Shown: piece by piece, positions 2,491 through 58,399 of the stretch
How the letters are laid out: each line of letters starts with the position of its first letter
Position numbering within the stretch: the first letter of the stretch is position 1
DNA from: Eledone cirrhosa
Lineage: Eukaryota
Direction: 5' to 3'
Assembly (NCBI GenBank): GCA_964016885.1
Contig: OZ024743.1
Span: 261,516,001-261,580,000 of the forward strand
DNA: 64,000 nucleotides
The notes under the pieces: model-generated
The model's input: the letters and a program-made list of their open reading frames with translations, nothing else
The model's database searches: none
Told to the model about the DNA's origin: nothing
Program-made: the position numbers and the translations under genes

Positions 2491-2594
2491 AATCAACAAC
2501 TAAACAACAATCCAGTTATTAAATTAATCGATGGGAAATTATAATAAGGAATTGAAACTGGTGCAGGTTTTTATTGGCAGCATGACCCTCCCAA

Positions 2595-2909
2595 GGTATA
2601 ATATCATACACTTTGGCTGTTAGCACACTTCTTACTATATATCTTAATTAATTACCAATACGAATGCTAATTATTATGTCTATTTCAGAATGATACTAAA
2701 AGCAAATGGGTATATATACCCATCAAATACATGTTTCATTGTGGTTGATTGGATGATGTACATATCTTCTGATGAGGGCCCAATTAGAACCAAAAATTGA
2801 TTAAAGATGTTTATCATTTTTTCAATTTACAGAGAAATTCATATTTTCTGGCATGTCTACATAGATATGTGTATATACACATTGATGCAGTCTACGTTAC
2901 ACACTGTAC
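2595..2909 (+). mobile_element. One unit of ~330-bp hammerhead-containing repeat (retrozyme / Penelope pLTR-like)
   Basis: Homologous, circularly permuted, to 57483-57740 (-) and 57741-58359 (+). Hammerhead at 2762-2810. Confidence 0.7.
2762..2810 (+). ncRNA. Minimal type I hammerhead ribozyme (decayed)
   Basis: ATATCTT-CTGATGA-G-GGCCC AATTA GAACC-(G>A)AA-AATTGATT-A-AAGATGT. 7-bp stem I, near-palindromic stem III, UUA cleavage triplet. Confidence 0.7.
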
Positions 2910-3228
2910 TAAACCCATGCTAGCGTGGAAGATAGACATTAAATGATGATGATTTATACAGATATAACTTTTATATCATCATCACTGTTTAATGTCCATT
3001 TTTCCATGCTAACAGAGGTTAGATAAGTTGTCCTATTGTGAGTTAGGCCAGGTTACCATATCTTGCTCATACAGAACTGATTTTGGTTTGGTTTCTACAA
3101 CTGGATGCTGTTCCTAACACCAACCACATTTACAGTGAGTACTGGGGGATTTTTGTTGTGATACATACATGACCATTTTACAGTGAGGGCTGGGTACTTT
3201 TTGTCATGACAACCTTATATATATATAT

Positions 3229-3572: not shown

Positions 3573-3925
3573 AGCATGGGTTAGACGGGTTGTCCTGTTG
3601 TGGGCAGTGTCCGGTCAGCTTACCTTGTCTTGCTCATACAGGAACTGATTCTGGCTTGATTTCTACAGCCGGATGCCCTTCCTAACACCAACCTCATTTA
3701 CAGTGAGTGCTGGGTGCTTTTTTGCCGTGGCACCTCCACAACCACTTTGCAGTGGAATGATAGGGACCCCAGTCCCTATCATCTCATTTCTACAGCTGAG
3801 TAAACTGGAGCAATGTGAAATAAAGTGTCTTGCTCAAGGAAACAACACATCACCCGGTCTGAGAATTGAACTCACAACCTTTCGATTGCAAGCCCAATGC
3901 TCTAACCACTAAGCCATGCACCTTC
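3573..3925 (-). mobile_element. tRNA-derived CORE-type SINE with RTE-derived tail
   Basis: Minus strand reads tRNA-like head TGGCTTAGTGGTTAGAGC..GAGTTCAATTC, CORE-like CCTTGAGCAAGACACTTT, and tail GTTGGTGTTAGGAAGGGCATCC shared with the RTE 3'UTR at 60280. Near-identical to 12602-12934. Confidence 0.75.
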
Positions 3926-4450
3926 ACATCTATGCATATGTATAATCAATAAAATCATTTCCAGTTGTAGTAATGCTAGTCCAGACTTTTCACAAAGGTA
4001 CAAAACACAACCACAAGTGGAAACTATAACCTTATCCAACAGTGCAACCATACTTCCAATCAACAACTGCTCCCTAAATAAGAAAACTCTTTTTTAGCCA
4101 TTAGGAACCTGGCAAAAGAGATACTAAAAAAAACTTCTATCATAGAATGCCGACCTCTGTTATTACCCCTGTGCACAAACTTTCCTCACTACTGTCACTA
4201 ACAAACTCAAAACAAGCCCCCTGAAATAGTCAAAACCAGCCACTACTCGTTTCTGCTCAATGCACAAAAATTGAAGGTCCAATTCATTGAGGATTGGGTT
4301 GACAACCATCCACACCACATCCCTTTCTTCATCCCGAGACTCATCTAGACAACTTCCACTTGAAAGCTGAAGCGATAGTGAGAAATTCTTCAACAGATCC
4401 TGTCAGCAGAAGGAAGGACGGAACTGCCACTTTCCTGCATTATTTTTTTT

Positions 4451-12477: not shown

Positions 12478-13053
12478 CCCTTTTCAGTATCTAAACCATT
12501 TTGTGACTGTTTCTAATGAAATAGAGTGTACTTCAATTAATTATTGAAGAATTATGTGCAATTTACTAAAATTAATTATCTCATAACTATCTATATGGTT
12601 CATTTCATTTCATTTTACGTCCGCTTTTTCCCTGCTTGCAAAGGTGGGACGGGAACCGATTCTGGCTTGATTTCTACAGTTGGATGCCCTTCCTAACACC
12701 AACCTCATTTACATTGAGTGCTGGGTGCTTTTTTGCCGTGGTACCTCCACGACCACTTTGCAGTGGAATGATAGGGACTCCAGTCCCTATCATCTCATTT
12801 CTACAGCTGAGTAAACTGGAGCAATGTGAAATAAAGTGTCTTGCTCAAGGAAACAACATCACCCGGTCTGAGAATTGAACTCACAACTTTTCGATTGTAA
12901 GGCCAATGCTCTAACCACTAAGCAATGTGCCTCCATGGTTCTTATATAAAATTATGTTGGAAGATTTAAGTTTAAATAGGAAACCTTTAAAATGTGTGGT
13001 TTTGTTTCATAGAACCAGCAATGGCTCTTTATTTGGCTTGGTATCAAAAAGGG
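12478..13053. mobile_element. Older piggyBac-type MITE interrupted by a SINE
   Basis: CCCTTTT...AAAAGGG termini with TTAA on the right. Related fragments near 13742 and 17108. Confidence 0.55.
12602..12934 (-). mobile_element. tRNA-derived CORE-type SINE with RTE tail, with TSD
   Basis: TSD ATGGTTC at 12595-12601 and 12935-12941. (AAATG)n-like tail. Same family as 3573-3925. Confidence 0.8.
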
Positions 13054-44039: not shown

Positions 44040-46690
44040 TCGACTCCTCAGGTGTTGTTAATTCACCACTGCTCCCAAACCAGTCGATACCTAAAAACAA
44101 TCGCACGTTACTCCTGCCGCCTAAACTACCACAGGGGCTGCGTTGGCATTACTAAGGTTCACGCTGAAAGTCTCTCAAACTGGACATATAACCAATGCCA
44201 CTTCAGCTCCGATTCCTGTTGCAGGTCCGAACCTAACTGACGTTCAGATTTCTGTTGAGGACTTTTCTGCTGCCCTCCGTGACTTGTCTAAGTTGAAACT
44301 CATCAACAGGATCACAAAGGGAGTTTGGTTATGTTTCGCCCGTGTTCTCTCCAAGCTGCTGAAGAATGTATGCCTATCTAACGGCATCTTGAATTGGCAG
44401 AAATTATTCTTGTTCCCTTTAGTCTTTCTCCATGTGTCCAATGTGAAATCCGAATCCCTCACATCTTCCCTAAAACAGCAGTTTCAGTTGTTTGATTCAA
44501 CCTCAATTACTGCTCATCTCAGGTCAGCAATCAACTCAGCTCCAATCAATGGTCGATCTCCGAACTTAAAAAAGGCTGTCAATGCTAAATTCATTGAATT
44601 TGAGATTAAAGGAGCTGTTCACCGCCTCTCCTCTCATCCCTCGCCCAGTGCCCTACAGAGTCACTCAACTAACTGAGAGCAAAACATCCTCTGGCTCTGA
44701 CACTGGCACAAACCACCAGGTTATTTGCAACTTGGCTTTACCCCAGCTATTGTTAGGAAGGCAATAATATCCTTTCTGGTGCAGGGATTGATGGTCTTTG
44801 ACCTCAGCACGTCAAGGATAATATCTCCTCGTCAACTGGAGATGTCGGCCTTGAGCTCTTAGAGAACCTCACCCATTTCGTCTACCTGTTCTCATCTAAG
44901 AATGTCCTTGTTTATATCTGCCCCCTATTCTTTGGAGCTAAACTGTTTGGTCTCACAAAACCCAACGGTGACCTCCACCCCATAGCAGTTGGGTGCACTC
45001 TGCGACGGTTCACTGTGAAGGTATGTCTGTCTTCGATTTCAGACAGCCTGTCGGCCAAATTTTCCCCTATTCAGCTATGTGGTGGGTACCAAGCTGAGGT
45101 TGTGAGGCTGCTGCTCACGCCACCAGAGTATTTAACAACTTGCCTTCCGAAAATCCCAAGGTCATTCTCAAGCTACATCTTAGGAATGCTTTTAATTCCA
45201 TCAGTTGGGATGTCACCCTCTGTTCAGTAAAGGAGGGGGCCTGCAGCTTTACCACTTTGCTTGGCAAGCCTACCAGGAGCCCTCCTACCTCATCTTCAGT
45301 GACCATCTCCTATCTGTCACAAGGGTCGAACAGGGTGACCCGCTCGGACCTGCATCTGATTGTCTGGTATCTGGATGATTCTTGCATAGGGGGTCCTCCA
45401 GACAAGGTCCTTGCAACTACGAAGATGATGATTGAGGAGCTGGGCCGTAGAGGCCTTCATGTCAACAGATCCAAATGCGAGCTCTGGCTCCTCAACCACC
45501 CAGCTTCACATCAAGAGACTGTTGACCTGTTCATGGAGTCTTTCTCCTCCATTGTGATTCCTCCCCCATCGGCATGGTGGTCCCTTCGGGCCACAGTTAC
45601 TGACCAAGCTTTCGAGTCCATCTTTTAATCTAAATTAGTTAACCTGAAGCAACTTTTAAAAAACCACAAAGTCATTGAGCCTCACCAAGTTTTTTCATTC
45701 TCCGGAATTATCTGTCAATCCCTATATAATATTTCCTTAAAGTTAGCCCCTCTTACAAATTCTTGTGTTTCCAACACTTCGACGATCTACTATTCAGTGA
45801 ACTTGAGGGTTTGGTCAGTGTCCGGCCAAGCTGCCTTACCCAAATGGTTTGGAGATCTCGGTTTGCGTAAGTGTACTTCTTTGTCCCTACCCTGCTTTCT
45901 TTCCTCCATCCACACCTGCTCCCTTTGGTAGGTGACATCCTCTCCTTCCCAACTTGAACTAGTTCCACCAAAGAGTTAAATGAAGCTTTACTACTGTGGA
46001 GAGAGCTGGGTTTGTCAGTCTCAGTTACTGATGAGAATAGACGGAAGCAGAGAGTATGGGACAATCTGTGTTCGAGGGAAACTTTCAACTCTCTCTGATC
46101 TTTCCAATCAATTTTTCTAGGTGCCGCTTACTTTCTGCTAGCACAAAGTACTCAGGGACTGATTGATGCCCTGCCTGTGGCCAACATTGGTGGCCTTCTC
46201 AGTCAGGAGAACTCCACATCTCCATTGCACTTCATGTGGGAGCACATCTGTGGGAGTCTGAAATGCCACTGTGATAGGTCCCTTGACTCCACAGGTTTAC
46301 ATGGTTTGTCCTGCCACCTGAATGCTGGTCGTTTTGCCCGTCACACCAAGCTAAACCTGATCATCAAATGGGCCCTGGCTTGGGTAAATATCCCCACAGT
46401 TCTGGAACCGGCTGGTTAATCCAGAAGTGATGGGAAGGGACCAGACAGTCTTACCCTTTGTCTCTGGGTGAGAGGTAGGTGTCTCATCAGGGACGTCACA
46501 GTCAGTGACTCTTTTGCTCCTTCTCACATCATGAACGCCACGGTGAATGTGGGAGTCACTGCTTCCACTGCCAAACAATAAAATTTAGAAATACCAGGAC
46601 TTATCAAATAATTATTTTTTCCAGCTTGTGGTGTTCGATGAAGTTGGGCTGCTGACAGCGAAGTTCTTGTCTTCACTGTCAGCACACCTT
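44040..46690 (+). mobile_element. CRE-clade non-LTR retrotransposon, degraded (RT, zinc knuckle, REL)
   Basis: KPNGDLHPIAVGCTLRR, KLHLRNAFNSI, GVEQGDPLGP, WYLDD, C.C....GLHGLSC...GRFARH, DGKGPD..T...W..G...DVTV.DSFA. Confidence 0.85.
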
Positions 46691-46699
46691 ACTGACTTC

Positions 46700-49600
46700 T
46701 AGATTTTCTCTGAAAGACCATAAATACAACTTTTTAGACAACCCCTCTATTAGACTTATAAGCCCTTCTACATCTGATATAGGTCAAATTAGCAAGTGTA
46801 TCCTTGACCGTATCACCTATATTGAAAGACAGAATTGGCTTGATACGGACCAAGTTGTTGACTGGTTCATTAGCATTAATGATAAGAATTGTCTTACATT
46901 TATACAATTTGACATCGATAGTTACTACGCCTCTATATTCCCTATTTTACTTAATAAAGCCCTTTTCTTAGCTAGTACTTATACTGATTTATCTAGAAAG
47001 GAAATAGACATTATATTGACTGCTATATGTACTATAATTGAGTTCAATGGTAGTTATTGGGCTAGGGCTAATGGACCAAATAACCGTGACATCACTATGG
47101 GGTCAAGTGACTCTGCTCAGGTTACTGACCTCGTAGGAATTTACCTTTTACACAAGCTTAAGGAGGATTTACCCTATCTACAAGGAGGCTTATACAGAGA
47201 CGATGCTCTATTTACTATAGAATTTCTTAAGAAGCATTTCCATATATTTTTTTAAAGCTTTGGTCTTTCTATCACGATTGAACCTAACAATAAGGTCGTC
47301 AATTTCCTTAAGACTACTTTAGACCTTAATACAGGACTATATCGTCCTTACCATAAACCCAGTGAGATCTTAACTTGTATTAATTGCCTTTCTAACCACC
47401 CCACTCTGTTTTTAAATCTATTGTAAAGTCGATTTTACACAGAATCTCTAGGATAATGAGAATCTCAGATAATGAGAATATATTTAACGAAATTGCCTGG
47501 TACTATAATGAGGCTCTTTCTAAATCAGGCCATAAAGATAAAATTTATTACTTACCTTCTATTCCATCCACCAACAATTATGTAATAATAATGCAATCGC
47601 ACAGAGTTGTATCTCTAGTAAGAATAGATTTAAAAACACTGATAGAAAAAACTGTCCTCCTTATAATGGCTTGCTATCTACTCCTAGCAATAAATTTAGA
47701 ATTAGCTTTAATGGGTACTTTAACCAAATGCCTTCCTTTAATACTAAGATTTCATCTACCACTACTCTTAATAATTGAAAAAATACTCTAAACTTACCTA
47801 TAAACCCATCTAATAACACCGTGTAACATATTTTTTGTTCCCTGGTTCTAAGTGTCATTTCCTGGTTTGTTATATCCCATTATTATTTTAAAAAACCACT
47901 ATTATTTAATCAGAAGTTTGGGTTTGTGGTCAGGAGTTTGATATTTCGAAATTTTCATAATTTTCAAGAAAAAACATTTTTTTAAAATTTATCAGTTCAT
48001 ATAATTAAATCAACAGAGTATATATTTATTTTATTACACAAGCTTATCAAAAGCAAACAAGTAAAAACAAATAACACTTATAAAGCAACTTATACATGTC
48101 AGAAATGACTGGATTTCCTGGATTTGCGGTTGTAGTCCAGGTCACATTCCCGCACTAGCCCCCAGATATAGTCCCCCATCATTTTTTCATTGTAGTGGCC
48201 CTGGTACCTCCGCTCTATCTCTTTCACATCTTGGTGGAATCGTTCGCCTTGTTCTTCTGAGTAGGCGCCCATATTGTCCTTGAATTTTTCCAGGTGAGCG
48301 TCCAGCATATGGAGTTTAAGTGACATCCTGTATCCCATGGCGCCAAAAGCCTTTATCAGATCCTGCACCAGTTGCTGGTAGTTTTCAGCTCTGTAGTTGC
48401 CCAGGAAGCCCTTAACAACAGCCTTGAAACAGTTCTATGCTGTTCTCTCAATCCTATTGAGCTTATTGGAGAACTCGGTAGACTCAAACACCTTCTTTAT
48501 CTGAGGTCCAACAAAAATTCCACCTTTGATTTTGGCCTCAGATAACTTGGGGAAGAACTCAAGAAGGTACTTAAAAGCGGCTGATTCTTGGTTGAGAGCC
48601 TTCACAAACTGCTTCATCAACCCCAACTTAATGTGCAGTGGCGGCATGAGCACAATCCTGGGATCAACCAGTGGCTCCCACATGACGTTCCGAGTCCCAA
48701 CTACAAATTCTGTTCGCTGCTCCCAGTTCTTTCTTTTGTAGTGGTCAGAGGTAGCTCTGCTGTCCCAAAGGCAGAGGAAGCATTGGAATTTGATAAAGCC
48801 TCCTTGGAGTCCAAGCAGGAAAGCCACCATCTTGAAGTCTCCAATGATTTCCCAATTGTACTGGTTGTATTGCAGAACTTCCAAGAGGACTTTCACACTG
48901 TAGTAATCTTCCTTCAGGCAGACTGAATGAGCTAGGGGCAGTGTCGGGAACTTGTTTCCATTGTGGAGGAAGACAGCCTTCAAACTTGTGGTGGAGCTGT
49001 CTATAAATAACCGCCACTCCTTGGGCACAAACGCACCCCAAGAACATCAAACAGTCCAGACACGCAATGGCAAAAGCAGAGGCCATCCATAAGAGTGTAA
49101 AAGCCTGAGAAAGGTTTGTGTCAATTTCTCTGGACCAAGTTCCACTGCTTCATCCTGGAGACGAATAGCTCTGCATTGGACTTGGCCAGACCCATATCCC
49201 TGACCAAGTCATTGACTTCTTTTGGGTTTGGGAAGTAAGGAACCTTTTCTGGTACCTCAGGCAGGTAATCCAAGTCCTCAGCATCCATCTCCTCCTCTTC
49301 ATCAGAATACTTGTCTTGGAAAATAAATTTGATATGCAATACAAAATAAATATTGGAAAGGGAAATACATATTTAAATAATATAAAAAAACATTAAACAT
49401 ACTAATGAAAATTTGTGCTTAAAACACAACTTACCCTTTATTCAGGATGCGAAAACCTAGTATCAATAAATCTCTTTAATCCACTTTTTAACAATTTTAT
49501 ACTTTATTGCACTTTTATAATTTTCTTTAGGTATTACTCTTTATTTTATAATTTTAATTTAACCTGAAACATATATAAAAAAAAGTAATTTAACATAAGC

Positions 49601-51740
49601 AAATTAAACTTACATACAACGTAAAATCCAGCATACAAATAATTCTAGTGAATAGCTTAGAATTTTTACAAACCCAAACTTTTAACTGTTTAATAGCACT
49701 TTTTTTATTTATTTGGGACCTAAGCAACACAAAAAAAGTGATTACAAGCCAGGAACAGAGAAAAAACATTTTTTTGTTACACAGTGTAATGCTAGTACTA
49801 TGCGCCGTAAAAGATCACGTAATATAACCTGGCTTAATCCTCCGTTCTCACTTAATGTTGCTTCTAACATATCTAGAATGTTCTTCTCTATCTTGTGTAA
49901 TAATTTCCTTCCTGACCACAAATACTATAAATTATTTAACAAAAATAACGTCAAGATTTCTTTCTCTACTACTCCTAACTTGGTGGATTATATTGCTTTT
50001 AGTAACCATAAGAAATAAAAAAAAACATAGGACCTCCCTTTCTGATGATTTACCTCTACCTATTAACCGTTTACATATGAATAATTGTAACTTTAATTCT
50101 TATCCTGTTAACTCTCCTATCTCCTCACCTACATATGACATGCCTTCTAGTACTATCCCTTTGCCTACATTATCTACTACCTATAACCCTAACTGTAATT
50201 GCAGAAATCCTAATAGCTGCCCTCTGAATGGTCATTGCCTTACTAATAATGTGGTACATAGATGCACTGTAAAAACCTATAGTGACACTAAAACATACAT
50301 TGGAGTTACTGCTAACCCTTTCAAAACTCATTTGAATTCTCATACACATTCATTTAAGAATAGTAATTTAAAATCTTCTACTTCCTTAGCTAGACATATA
50401 AATACACTAAAACTCTCTAATATTGAATATTCTTTAGTTTGGGATATTTTAGCCAAATCCTCTCCCTACAAAGGTCGTAAAGGTCATTGCTATATATGTT
50501 TATCCAAAGAGTATTTCATAACTATGTCTAAACCCCGCAATATAAACGACCATAACAGGATTGTTATTAACTGCCATCATCGTTTGGCATACTCGTTTGC
50601 TAACAGGATTTTTGATCCCACTTAAATTCCATTAGTTTAATTGATTATCCCCCACTCTTTTACTATTTATTTTTTACCCACCACTCCATGTATCTTACCC
50701 TCACATTTTAACTTGTTATTTGTTTCTTCCTTATTTAATTTACCTCTTACTTATCTTTTATTTTACTTTATTCCTTCCCGTATTATATTAATACTATTTT
50801 TCTTTTTATATATATTTTTTTAATGCATAACCTAGATTCTTTATCTTTTATATTCCCTTCCTTAGTTAATGGTTCATTTTCCCCTTCTAACTACTCTTTC
50901 TTTTCACTTTTAATATAACCTTCTCTTATGTATTATTATTTAATAGGCATGCTTCTCCTTTTATTTCTATTTATTTGTCTTTTTCTTTTCTTTTTTTGCT
51001 TTAACCTCCATATATCCACACCATTCTCCACAATATTAGATTATATTAATAATCTTACACCATCTTCTTTATTAACCCCTCCTATTTAATCTTTTTAACT
51101 TAAATCTCTTTGCATATTATTTTATTTCCCTTTATTTTACTACTGATATTTTTTTTATTATCCCATTTCCTCTAACCCCTTCGACCTTAGTTCTTATCTT
51201 TAAACCTATTTTTACCCTATTTAATTTAATCTTGTTTAATTATTTTCAATTATTTTTAATTCACTTTCTATAGCTTCCATCTATATTATCTTTTTTCTTA
51301 GAGTGAACTTTTACTGCTTTGACTTATCTCCTGCCTTTCTATACTATTTAACTATATTCTTTATATACCTTTTCTCTTAAATCATTAATTTTGAATTTTT
51401 TCTATAATTTTCTCATTTTTTTCTTTTTAACATTTTTCTAAATAAATCTTAAATTAGCCATCAAATATACATTTCTACTCATATATCTCCCTTTATTCTT
51501 AGTTACACCTCTTGTTATACACACTTCCGCTTACATTTGAATTTCTTCATTTGTTTTTCAAACCGTCATATTCCTTAAATTTTTAACCGATCTTCATACC
51601 CATATTACTAATATGTGGACAGCTTCTATCCAAGTATTGCATTTATTGTATGCCTTATTTTATAGTGGTATGTTTTTCTTTTAGAATTTTTATGTTTAAT
51701 GTTTTCTTTTTGGCTCTGATGAGGTGACCATATCAAACAT
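46700..51740 (+). mobile_element. Penelope-like element (RT, GIY-YIG, T-rich 3' region with hammerhead remnant), interrupted by a Chapaev3 insertion
   Basis: LKDHK..RLI.P..IG.ISK.ILD, FDIDSYY, TMGS.D.A, GLYRDD, SNHP. After the insertion RKRSRNITWLNPPFS, CNC..CP..C, TYIG, F.T....H..SF, C.IC..E. CTGATGAGG at 51716. Confidence 0.85.
47817..49786 (-). mobile_element. Chapaev3-like (CMC) DNA transposon with TAA TSD, transposase pseudogene
   Basis: TAA|CACCGTGTAACA ... TGTTACACAGTG|TAA. ORFs 49121-49339, 48435-49028 and 48099-48368 give PPLHIKLGLMKQFVKAL, MSLKLH, SEEQGERFHQD. CAC/GTG ends with a TWA TSD are diagnostic for Chapaev3. Confidence 0.9.
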
Positions 51741-51866
51741 TTCTTTTTATTGTTCATTTATCGATTTTAGGATCGATAATTACCTCATGTATGTACACAT
51801 TACTGATTTAGTTTCCGAAAAAATTTGTCAGCCAAAAATCTGATGTTGTTTTCTCTGATATTTAAT

Positions 51867-56877: not shown

Positions 56878-57339
56878 CCTCCGGTGAGTGCGAACAATAA
56901 CTAAAATAAGTTATTGGGATAAAAAGAATTGGGTGGAGAAAGAGAGACAGGTGAACAAACAAGAATGGTGGGGCAATGTAAAGAGAGGAAAAATGAGAAA
57001 ATCAAGTCAGTGAATCATTTGAACATAAGAACTTGCGAATCATTGATGAGAAGACGAAAGACCATCCGTACCGTGCGAAAAGTGAGCGAGAAAAGAGTTT
57101 CGTACGGTGCCGGATGTTGTTCTTTTCTCGCTCACTTTTCGCACGGTACGGATGGTCTTTCGTCTTCTCATCAATGATTCGCAAGTTCTTATGTTCAAAT
57201 GATTCACTGACTTGATTTTCTCATTTTTCCTCTCTTTACGTTGCCCCACCATTCTTGTTTGTTCACCTGTCTCTCTTTCTCCACCCAATTCTTTTTATCC
57301 CAATAACTTATTTTAGTTATTGTTCGCACTCGCCGGAGA
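56878..57339. mobile_element. Near-perfect palindromic MITE (~218-bp arms) inserted at TA
   Basis: Arms 56879-57096 and 57121-57338, 24-bp spacer. TA flanks, left end in a (TA)n tract. Confidence 0.9.
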
Positions 57340-57656
57340 TATCTGATCTTTAATGCGAAGAAATACCTATGACGGCTAATAGATCACGGATGAAGGATAG
57401 TCTCGGCTTCTCTTTCTAATTTTTACTTCATATGTATCACATTCGCAACAACACAGCACACCATTTTTCATTTATATATATATACATAGTAACAAGTGCA
57501 CTAGCAGCCAAAGTGTTTGATAAAGTTATACCTGTATGAATACAGTATGTAACTGAGACTACACCAATGTGTATGAATATATATATATCTAATATATAGG
57601 CATGTAAACATGCCAGAAAATATGAATTTCCCCATAAACTGAAAAAAAACCGATAG

Positions 57657-57705
57657 ATATCTTTAATCGCTTTTTGGATCTTATTGAACCTTCATCAGAA
57701 GACAT
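57657..57705 (-). ncRNA. Minimal type I hammerhead ribozyme (decayed)
   Basis: ATGTCTT-CTGATGA-A-GGTTC AATAA GATCC-(G>A)AA-AAGCGATT-A-AAGATAT. Confidence 0.7.
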
Positions 57706-57856
57706 GTATATGATCCAATCAACCATGAGGAAATATGTATCAATTTAATCTGAAAATTGATTAAAGATGTTTATCATTTTTTCAATTTATGGGGAAATTC
57801 GTATTTTATGGCATGTTTACATGCCTACATATTAGATATGTGTATATATTTATCCA

Positions 57857-58130
57857 TAGGCAGAGTTGTTTGAACATCGACTATCTACTCTCTGAGTTCA
57901 AATCTTGTCACGGTCAACTTGCCTTTCATCCTTTCAAGGTCGATAAAAAAGTACCAGTCAAAAACTAGGGTCGATTCTTCCTCTATATCTCTTCCTCACT
58001 TCCTCTCTTTCACTATCTGTATTCAGACCAGGAGAGGGATGGGCTCTGCCAGGTTTAAAAATGCCCTAGAAATGCCAAATGTCAATATGGCGCCTCTACG
58101 ACTCCTTCAGGAGTTAGGGGACCATACCAG
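57857..58130 (+). mobile_element. Composite tRNA SINE with TSD
   Basis: B-box GAGTTCAAATC. TSD TTTATCCA at 57849-57856 and 58134-58141. Confidence 0.75.
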
Positions 58131-58399
58131 ATGTTTATCCACATTGGTGCTGTCTTAGTTACGCACACTGTATTTATACAGGTATAACATTATCATACAC
58201 TTTGGCTGATAATACCTTTCTTAATATATATCTTAATTAATTACCAAGATGAGAAGTAATTATATCCAAATTAGTATATATATTTCAGAATAATGCTGAA
58301 AGCAAATGGGTATGTATACCCATCTAATACATATTTCCTTGTGGTTGATTGGATAATATCGGGAAGAGATAGAAGAAGTCTAGAAAGAAAGATCTGTCT

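Follow-up and report, generated by a model that had tools for sequence, protein, structure and literature searches.

The window (the whole 64,000-nucleotide stretch of DNA analysed here) carries three copies, termed A, B and C, of a non-coding repeat that is 356 nt long and contains a type I hammerhead motif, and these are, as read from their sequence, old and decayed insertions (Table 1). When the window was compared with itself, A matched both C and B, with identities of 76-83% and E values from 1e-6 to 1e-41, in line with the homology reported for the three copies in an earlier note on this DNA. Positions in the unit are numbered from u1, the first base after the predicted cut, and in this numbering the copies are circularly permuted, as had been proposed, each passing from its own starting point through u356. 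The period of the unit, previously put at ~330 nt, was measured as 356 nt, the interval at which the pattern recurs in an alignment of 67 copies centred on the hammerhead.

Table 1. Positions of the unit copies and associated features in the window.
Feature	Position	Strand	Details
Copy A	2594-2971	+	u133-u356-u144 (1.03 units); 83% identity to family consensus
Hammerhead of copy A	2753-2817	+	Core start 2769; predicted cut after 2803
Broken Penelope-like element, separate from the unit	46656-~51860	+	Reverse transcriptase 46656-47791; endonuclease 49828-50622
Short (TA)n tract	57473-57485		Arm B ends inside; based on sequence and flank listing
Copy B	57482-57740	-	u280-u356-u184 arm; 86% identity to consensus
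Hammerhead of copy B	57650-57714	-	Core start 57698; predicted cut after 57664
Copy C, first part	57741-57856	+	u334-u94; only the 3' half of the hammerhead core
Insertion splitting copy C	57857-58130		274-base common dispersed repeat
Copy C, second part	58131-58359	+	u84-u312; 86% identity to consensus

Copy A, which had been thought to end at 2909, was found to run ~60 bases further, to just over one unit; it is interrupted by ~44 foreign bases (2908-2951) and stops at the first of two preferred 3' sites described below. Copies B and C meet head to head at the junction 57740/57741, and copy B ends at the second preferred 3' site in a (TA)n tract that is likely the target site of this arm. 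The extent given previously for copy C (57741-58359 on the plus strand, u334-u356-u312) was upheld, the outer end being truncated 10 bases short of the next core with the first core half absent, but its continuity was not, as the inserted repeat lies inside it. This repeat is flanked by a short duplication of u84-u94, matches 94 of the collected sequences (the window included) and entered copy C later. The core decay described before, to CCAAAA in A and B and to CTGAAA in C, was seen again. As an A takes the place of G12 in both A (at 2792) and B (at 57675), and C has only half a core, no copy in the window is predicted to cut.

The Penelope-like element in the window is split by a 2-kb repeat (47810-49786) that is ~90% like the sequence at 573-2247 and gave no Pfam match. 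It has a CxCX5C linker with flanking CxxC and CxH motifs, as in the Hydra clade of EN+ Penelope-like elements (PLEs), which the accessible part of the literature describes as bearing these motifs and targeting (TA)n; an assignment to Neptune was dropped on account of the same motifs. A hammerhead-like motif at ~51712-51830 has ~95 nt between its core halves and a GUC triplet, and (TA)n ends the element ~40 nt past this motif. The end of the element is unrelated to the unit, with no sequence similarity between them, and the element is not established as the mobiliser. The view that the unit was mobilised by the Penelope elements of this window was thus retained in part: a Penelope-mobilised, non-autonomous ribozyme element is the best reading, but the window's own element has a different end.

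To characterize the family, copy A was used as the query against the same genome, which comprises 3.0 Gb in 1796 contigs; this search gave 2080 first-look candidates. Scoring 40 of these yielded 52 matches, the best 39 non-self matches being 76-85% identical to copy A. Two internal motifs had 104 and 197 exact matches genome-wide (0 in reversed controls), from which a dispersed family of an estimated few thousand copies is inferred. The unit is non-coding, with a GC content of 33% and a longest ATG frame on the circle of 71 codons. A set of 205 distinct main pieces was collected, partly through hammerhead-anchored searches and hence biased to longer copies; their identity to the consensus had a median of 83.6% and a maximum of 94.6%. 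The dispersed pieces span ~0.3-1.8 units, have ragged 5' ends and show a partial tandem as their only long terminal repeat. The tandem and permuted copies anticipated by the earlier note were found: 74/205 pieces are longer than one unit, a length of 1.5 units is attained by 11 and of two units by a single one, and two cut sites are crossed by 20/205, in one of which both cores are intact. Two intact cores are present at the locus L061 (G000:C3:106670093-106670468).

A genome-wide search for long tandem arrays returned only one exact hammerhead-to-hammerhead dimer, and clustered matches spaced by 2.4, 4.4 and 10-12 kb were rejected as arrays, being duplicated segments. No young copies were found among the pieces collected. 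The median nearest-neighbour identity was 84%, and pairs more than 95% identical all share their flanks as duplicates, so the family looks extinct. An older subfamily is represented by a locus with three tandem hammerheads spaced 369 and 349 nt apart (L257, G000:C3:75401199-75402049), whose relatives are only 65-75% alike. Scars of RNA editing were not found (A>G 338/10693 vs T>C 497/15297, P = 0.72), and scans of metagenome contigs and of viral contigs for the hammerhead motif gave 0 matches in each.

The consensus folds as a type I hammerhead, with a complete core and three helices both in the consensus and in intact copies. In stem I, a 3x1 internal loop separates the first 7 bp from 6 further bp. 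Stem II, which had been drawn otherwise before and is corrected here, has 5 bp with a 6-nt loop in the main subfamily; the type I assignment and the complete core stood. Two pairs of stem III close a palindromic loop, and the cut is predicted after UUA. The motif had also been set beside minimal hammerheads, a likeness that its geometry does not bear out: according to Cervera and de la Pena (2014, PMC4209133), helix II of minimal PLE hammerheads spans 7-8 bp and helix I spans 4-5 bp, and the unit, with 5 bp and with 7+6 bp around an internal loop, lies outside that range and is, judging by its predicted helices, canonical. Within the part of that source available, the motif resembles both the minimal PLE and the canonical metazoan type I hammerheads in its G10.1-C11.1 pair, its palindromic stem III region and its predicted need for a dimer. 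The stem III palindrome forms a duplex of -6.1 kcal/mol in trans and no hairpin alone, and such trans-only pairing is the dimer-dependent design given there for canonical metazoan type I motifs.

Complete cores were present elsewhere in the genome, as the intact CCGAAA copies looked for after the earlier note: one pattern had 31 exact matches and a looser one 112, with 0 in reversed controls, and three of the 30 sequences fetched among the 31 were other hammerhead families. Among 83 cores not selected for the ribozyme, 17 were intact and 66 broken, and the core dinucleotide was CG in 34, TG in 15, CA in 11 and another in 23. Scoring against the Rfam hammerhead models, which had been suggested as a check, found no hammerhead either in the window, at E values up to 1, or in an intact copy, where E values up to 10 were admitted.

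Covariation was analysed in 81 gap-free copies, with indel-bearing and near-duplicate copies left out of the 110 listed. Over this set 85.6% of cells were paired. The covariation score was matched in 0/500 shuffles, as were the 37 two-sided cells, while the number of pairs with two-sided change was attained by 140/500. Between subfamilies U-A is replaced by C-G in stem I (21/120 copies) and in stem II (19/120), and G-U by A-U in stem II (27/120). As traced through these subfamilies, the covariation signal consists of a few inherited subfamily changes, and so of few independent events. Stem I extends into a rod of ~45 pairs, the outer part of which has no compensation. The circular consensus gave a folding z of -3.9, the minus strand being nearly equal at -3.7; folding of single copies was weak in A (z -1.0), B (-2.2) and the copy at L118 (-1.4), and reached -4.8 in that at L102. 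The ribozyme is considered likely to have once been active, and the cutting step of the mechanism proposed below is based on this fold and on how it was conserved from one subfamily to another. Seven further loci (L042, L046, L057, L143, L145, L154 and L156) hold other hammerhead families with different palindromic stems III; an endonuclease-like frame ends ahead of the one at L042, and several of the seven are in head-to-head pairs.

The ends of the copies were estimated independently of the ribozyme from an anchor at u22-43, which had 197 matches; 90 loci were examined (30 plus 60 of 100 listed), giving 92 anchors. The 5' ends were evenly spread and 75/92 anchored copies read through the cut site, with no pile-up of 5' ends there (a start at u1 in 2/92). 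Among 325 pieces, a start at u356/u1 was seen in 6, which is not above the neighbouring peaks. A cluster of 5' ends at u14-17 was considered as a special start and rejected, since it lies at a T run and within a constant truncation rate. The 3' ends, by comparison, fell at u139-153 in 32 anchored copies and at u174-185 in 29, together 61/92, with peaks near u146-150 and u184 that are ~34 nt apart and lie on TA-like patches of the unit. A dinucleotide microsatellite directly followed 89/132 of the ends in these two ranges, as against 14/57 of other ends and 994/5360 random positions (18.5%). An inverted, head-to-head arm was found in 60/205 copies, the B/C pair being the example in the window. 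Both arms lie at preferred sites in 21 of these 60 loci (in the other 39 they do not), and 17 of the 21 use one site per arm (P = 0.004 against 50:50, the site ranges being drawn from the same data). Because of these end patterns, mobilisation of the unit by a Penelope-type enzyme is considered very likely.

Penelope-type endonuclease is abundant in the genome, with 65831 candidates, and no partner element sharing sequence with the unit was found among 30 plus 20 endonuclease loci of one clade. The protein probes used for Penelope ORFs represented one clade and one short fragment. No recurring flank and no attached Penelope ORF were found among the 205 pieces, in flanks of mostly 0.8-1.5 kb, in accordance with the expectation that the unit is not always tied to such an ORF. 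Junction flanks shared between copies were considered as a hidden ORF and rejected: in the 14 pairs on the 5' side they are duplicated segments or other repeats met at differing positions of the unit, and the 3' side gave the same outcome. PLE proteins matched at seven unit-bearing loci. At one of these, L181, the unit is merely inserted in the terminal microsatellite of the PLE, and a unit near a PLE at L312 was checked and is not linked to it. At L237/L319 (G000:C3, near 108476300) a unit copy ends at u160 and is followed, after ~16 bases, by a Penelope reverse transcriptase fragment of ~370 nt on the same strand. This single junction is ambiguous, and it could be that the fragment is a later insertion or reflects a template switch between two RNAs. 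In copies longer than one unit the upstream sequence is the unit again, so that the 74 such pieces close on themselves with no ORF between the repeats; together with the lack of an attached Penelope ORF in the flanks searched, this gives no evidence that the unit is merely a pLTR. Elsewhere in the genome, a young Penelope-type family with copies 91-97% alike was observed at L299-L310 (for example G000:C2:345563000-345576800), and is a candidate live enzyme source. The layout of its 3' region is not a simple type I one: ~85 nt separate a pair of CUGANGA-like motifs, and the GAAA lies at a distance.

One interpretation of these data, and in our judgement the probable one, is that the unit is a non-autonomous retrozyme, for which a Penelope-type reverse transcriptase-endonuclease acting in trans carried out the copying into (TA)n microsatellites. 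In such a scheme, a copy bearing two hammerheads would be transcribed, and its two palindromic stems III would pair to form a double hammerhead that releases a 356-nt monomer by cutting after UUA. The ~45-bp rod around stem I would hold the monomer ends together and thereby permit closure into a circle. The Penelope enzyme would then break a (TA)n tract on both strands, and cDNA synthesis would start from the two DNA ends at internal sites near u150 and u184; copying would pass the cut site and go on for about two turns at most. The cDNAs would finally be joined as one arm or as two head-to-head arms.

The behaviour assumed for the enzyme has precedents. PLEs are reported to form partial tandems, to carry an inverted, 5'-truncated copy and to bear, on one side, a tail of 30-40 bp (Craig et al. 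2021, PMC8557442), and the anole Poseidon element PAc was shown in vitro to use two internal start sites for reverse transcription and to extend both target strands (Frangieh et al. 2024, PMC11167929). As far as the available parts of these two sources go, the unit is like EN+ PLEs (especially Hydra) and PAc in its partial tandems, 5' truncation and inverted arm, in two 3' end points 30-40 bp apart, in (TA)n targets and in a hammerhead upstream of the reverse transcription starts. Unlike EN+ PLEs it has no ORF, closes on itself after 356 nt and carries a hammerhead with a long stem I and a short stem II. The PAc start sites are described without homology to the target, whereas the end points of the unit fall at TA-like patches (PMC11167929).

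The circle would be the weakest step of the retrozyme scheme; read-through of the cut site fits a circle and an uncut linear transcript equally. An alternative accepts the same element and the same Penelope enzyme but dispenses with the circle: a partial-tandem source would be read through into a linear transcript that serves uncut as the template, or the reverse transcriptase would jump between linear RNAs. The hammerhead would then be a passenger or come into play late. Unprocessed RNA was the main template of PAc in vitro, according to the accessible text of PMC11167929. Against the linear alternative stand the paired stems, which were maintained across the subfamily changes, and the consideration that 5' truncation shrinks copies, so that sources longer than one unit would need regenerating. 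Nor does the rarity of two-unit copies speak for a linear template, as truncation at ~0.7% per base predicts only 1-2 of them in 92 even from a circle. On balance the linear route is regarded as a plausible but lesser prospect, and a circular template is held to be slightly more likely than not.

Two further explanations were weighed. The unit could be the pLTR of an autonomous Penelope-like element with a short-tandem end, the dispersed copies being its 5'-truncated ends and the ORF-bearing copies being rare, decayed or of a clade that was not probed. Every insertion mark is indeed PLE-like, the narrow range of the protein probes and the short flanks leave room for such an element, and the unit copy at L237 directly precedes a reverse transcriptase fragment on the same strand. 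On the other hand, it is the unit itself that lies upstream in copies longer than one unit, the shared junction flanks resolve into duplications or other repeats at varying unit positions, and the two closest of the seven loci with PLE matches are the microsatellite insertion at L181 and the isolated scrap at L237. The canonical hammerhead also differs from the minimal PLE shape in the described part of PMC4209133, and a pLTR origin is judged unlikely. In the other explanation a LINE moved the unit, which would be no more than an ordinary repeat, SINE-like or derived from a satellite, and the hammerhead-like motif would have arisen by chance or be a relic. This would agree with the lack of an Rfam match in the sequences scored and with the 66/83 broken cores. 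It does not sit well with a complete core whose three helices are correctly ordered and show two-sided changes, or with permuted copies that have two internal 3' end sites and paired arms; priming at the 3' end of a LINE is not known to yield copies of this kind. This explanation is considered very improbable.

As to known systems, animal non-LTR retrozymes have been defined, with circles shown in coral, mussel and axolotl and PLEs named as likely mobilisers (Cervera and de la Pena 2020, PMC7229834), and retrozymes have been argued to be non-autonomous PLE derivatives, 24/57 Xenopus families being matched to Repbase elements, nearly all of them PLEs (Li, Clavereau and Pollet 2026, bioRxiv 10.64898/2026.07.22.740005). 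Compared with the accessible portions of these two accounts, the present family is alike in its non-coding unit of 150-450 bp (here 356) and low GC (here 33%), in its canonical type I hammerhead, whose palindromic helix III is very short as in axolotl HHR_Amex1, and in occurring alongside PLEs, by which mobilisation has been proposed. The known retrozymes form dimers to long arrays, whereas the present copies are dispersed old pieces of ~0.3-1.8 units. Under the definition of an active retrozyme as two consecutive complete hammerheads, as it appears in the part of Li et al. available, the window copies would not be counted as active. The Xenopus families are often matched to Repbase PLEs, whereas no homologous pLTR was found for the 356-nt unit in the loci searched. 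A literature search found no publication on the 356-nt family, which may already stand in Repbase or Dfam, both outside the scope of that search. The class of animal retrozymes and its Penelope link are already published, and the 356-nt family is one more member.

The value of the family is limited by its apparent extinction and by the class being published. Within these bounds, the two end sites 34 nt apart, used one per arm, offer genomic support for the movement of retrozyme RNAs by Penelope enzymes, which is mostly proposed in the accessible text of PMC7229834 and bioRxiv 10.64898/2026.07.22.740005, and the unit is a handy substrate on which the copying of circles by a Penelope enzyme could be examined. 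A more far-reaching and rather speculative reading, to which we give limited credence, is that the family was a long-lived, viroid-like circular RNA lineage and not a shortened terminus of any Penelope element that the genome contains today. The double hammerhead of such a lineage would have stayed functional across three or more subfamilies. A dimer of a Penelope enzyme, probably of the Hydra clade, would have used the two broken DNA ends simultaneously to copy a single 356-nt circle, with one start near u150 and the other near u184. If this were true, one step would account for the partial tandems and the inverted arms as well as for the Penelope 'tail', and the unit would be a minimal RNA substrate for the test.

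Some other features were recorded in the course of the analysis. A long, near-perfect palindrome at 56983-57199 of the window, centred at ~57108 and 280 bases from arm B, gave spurious Rfam miRNA matches and is possibly the head-to-head junction of another element. At 3638-3926 and 12649-12935 there are two copies of a repeat, 94% alike, that have a tRNA-like part on the minus strand and are likely a SINE. Elsewhere in the genome, an open frame of at least 369 codons lies 370 bases from a unit copy (L002:2-1108), and reads like what we take to be a cadherin ectodomain.
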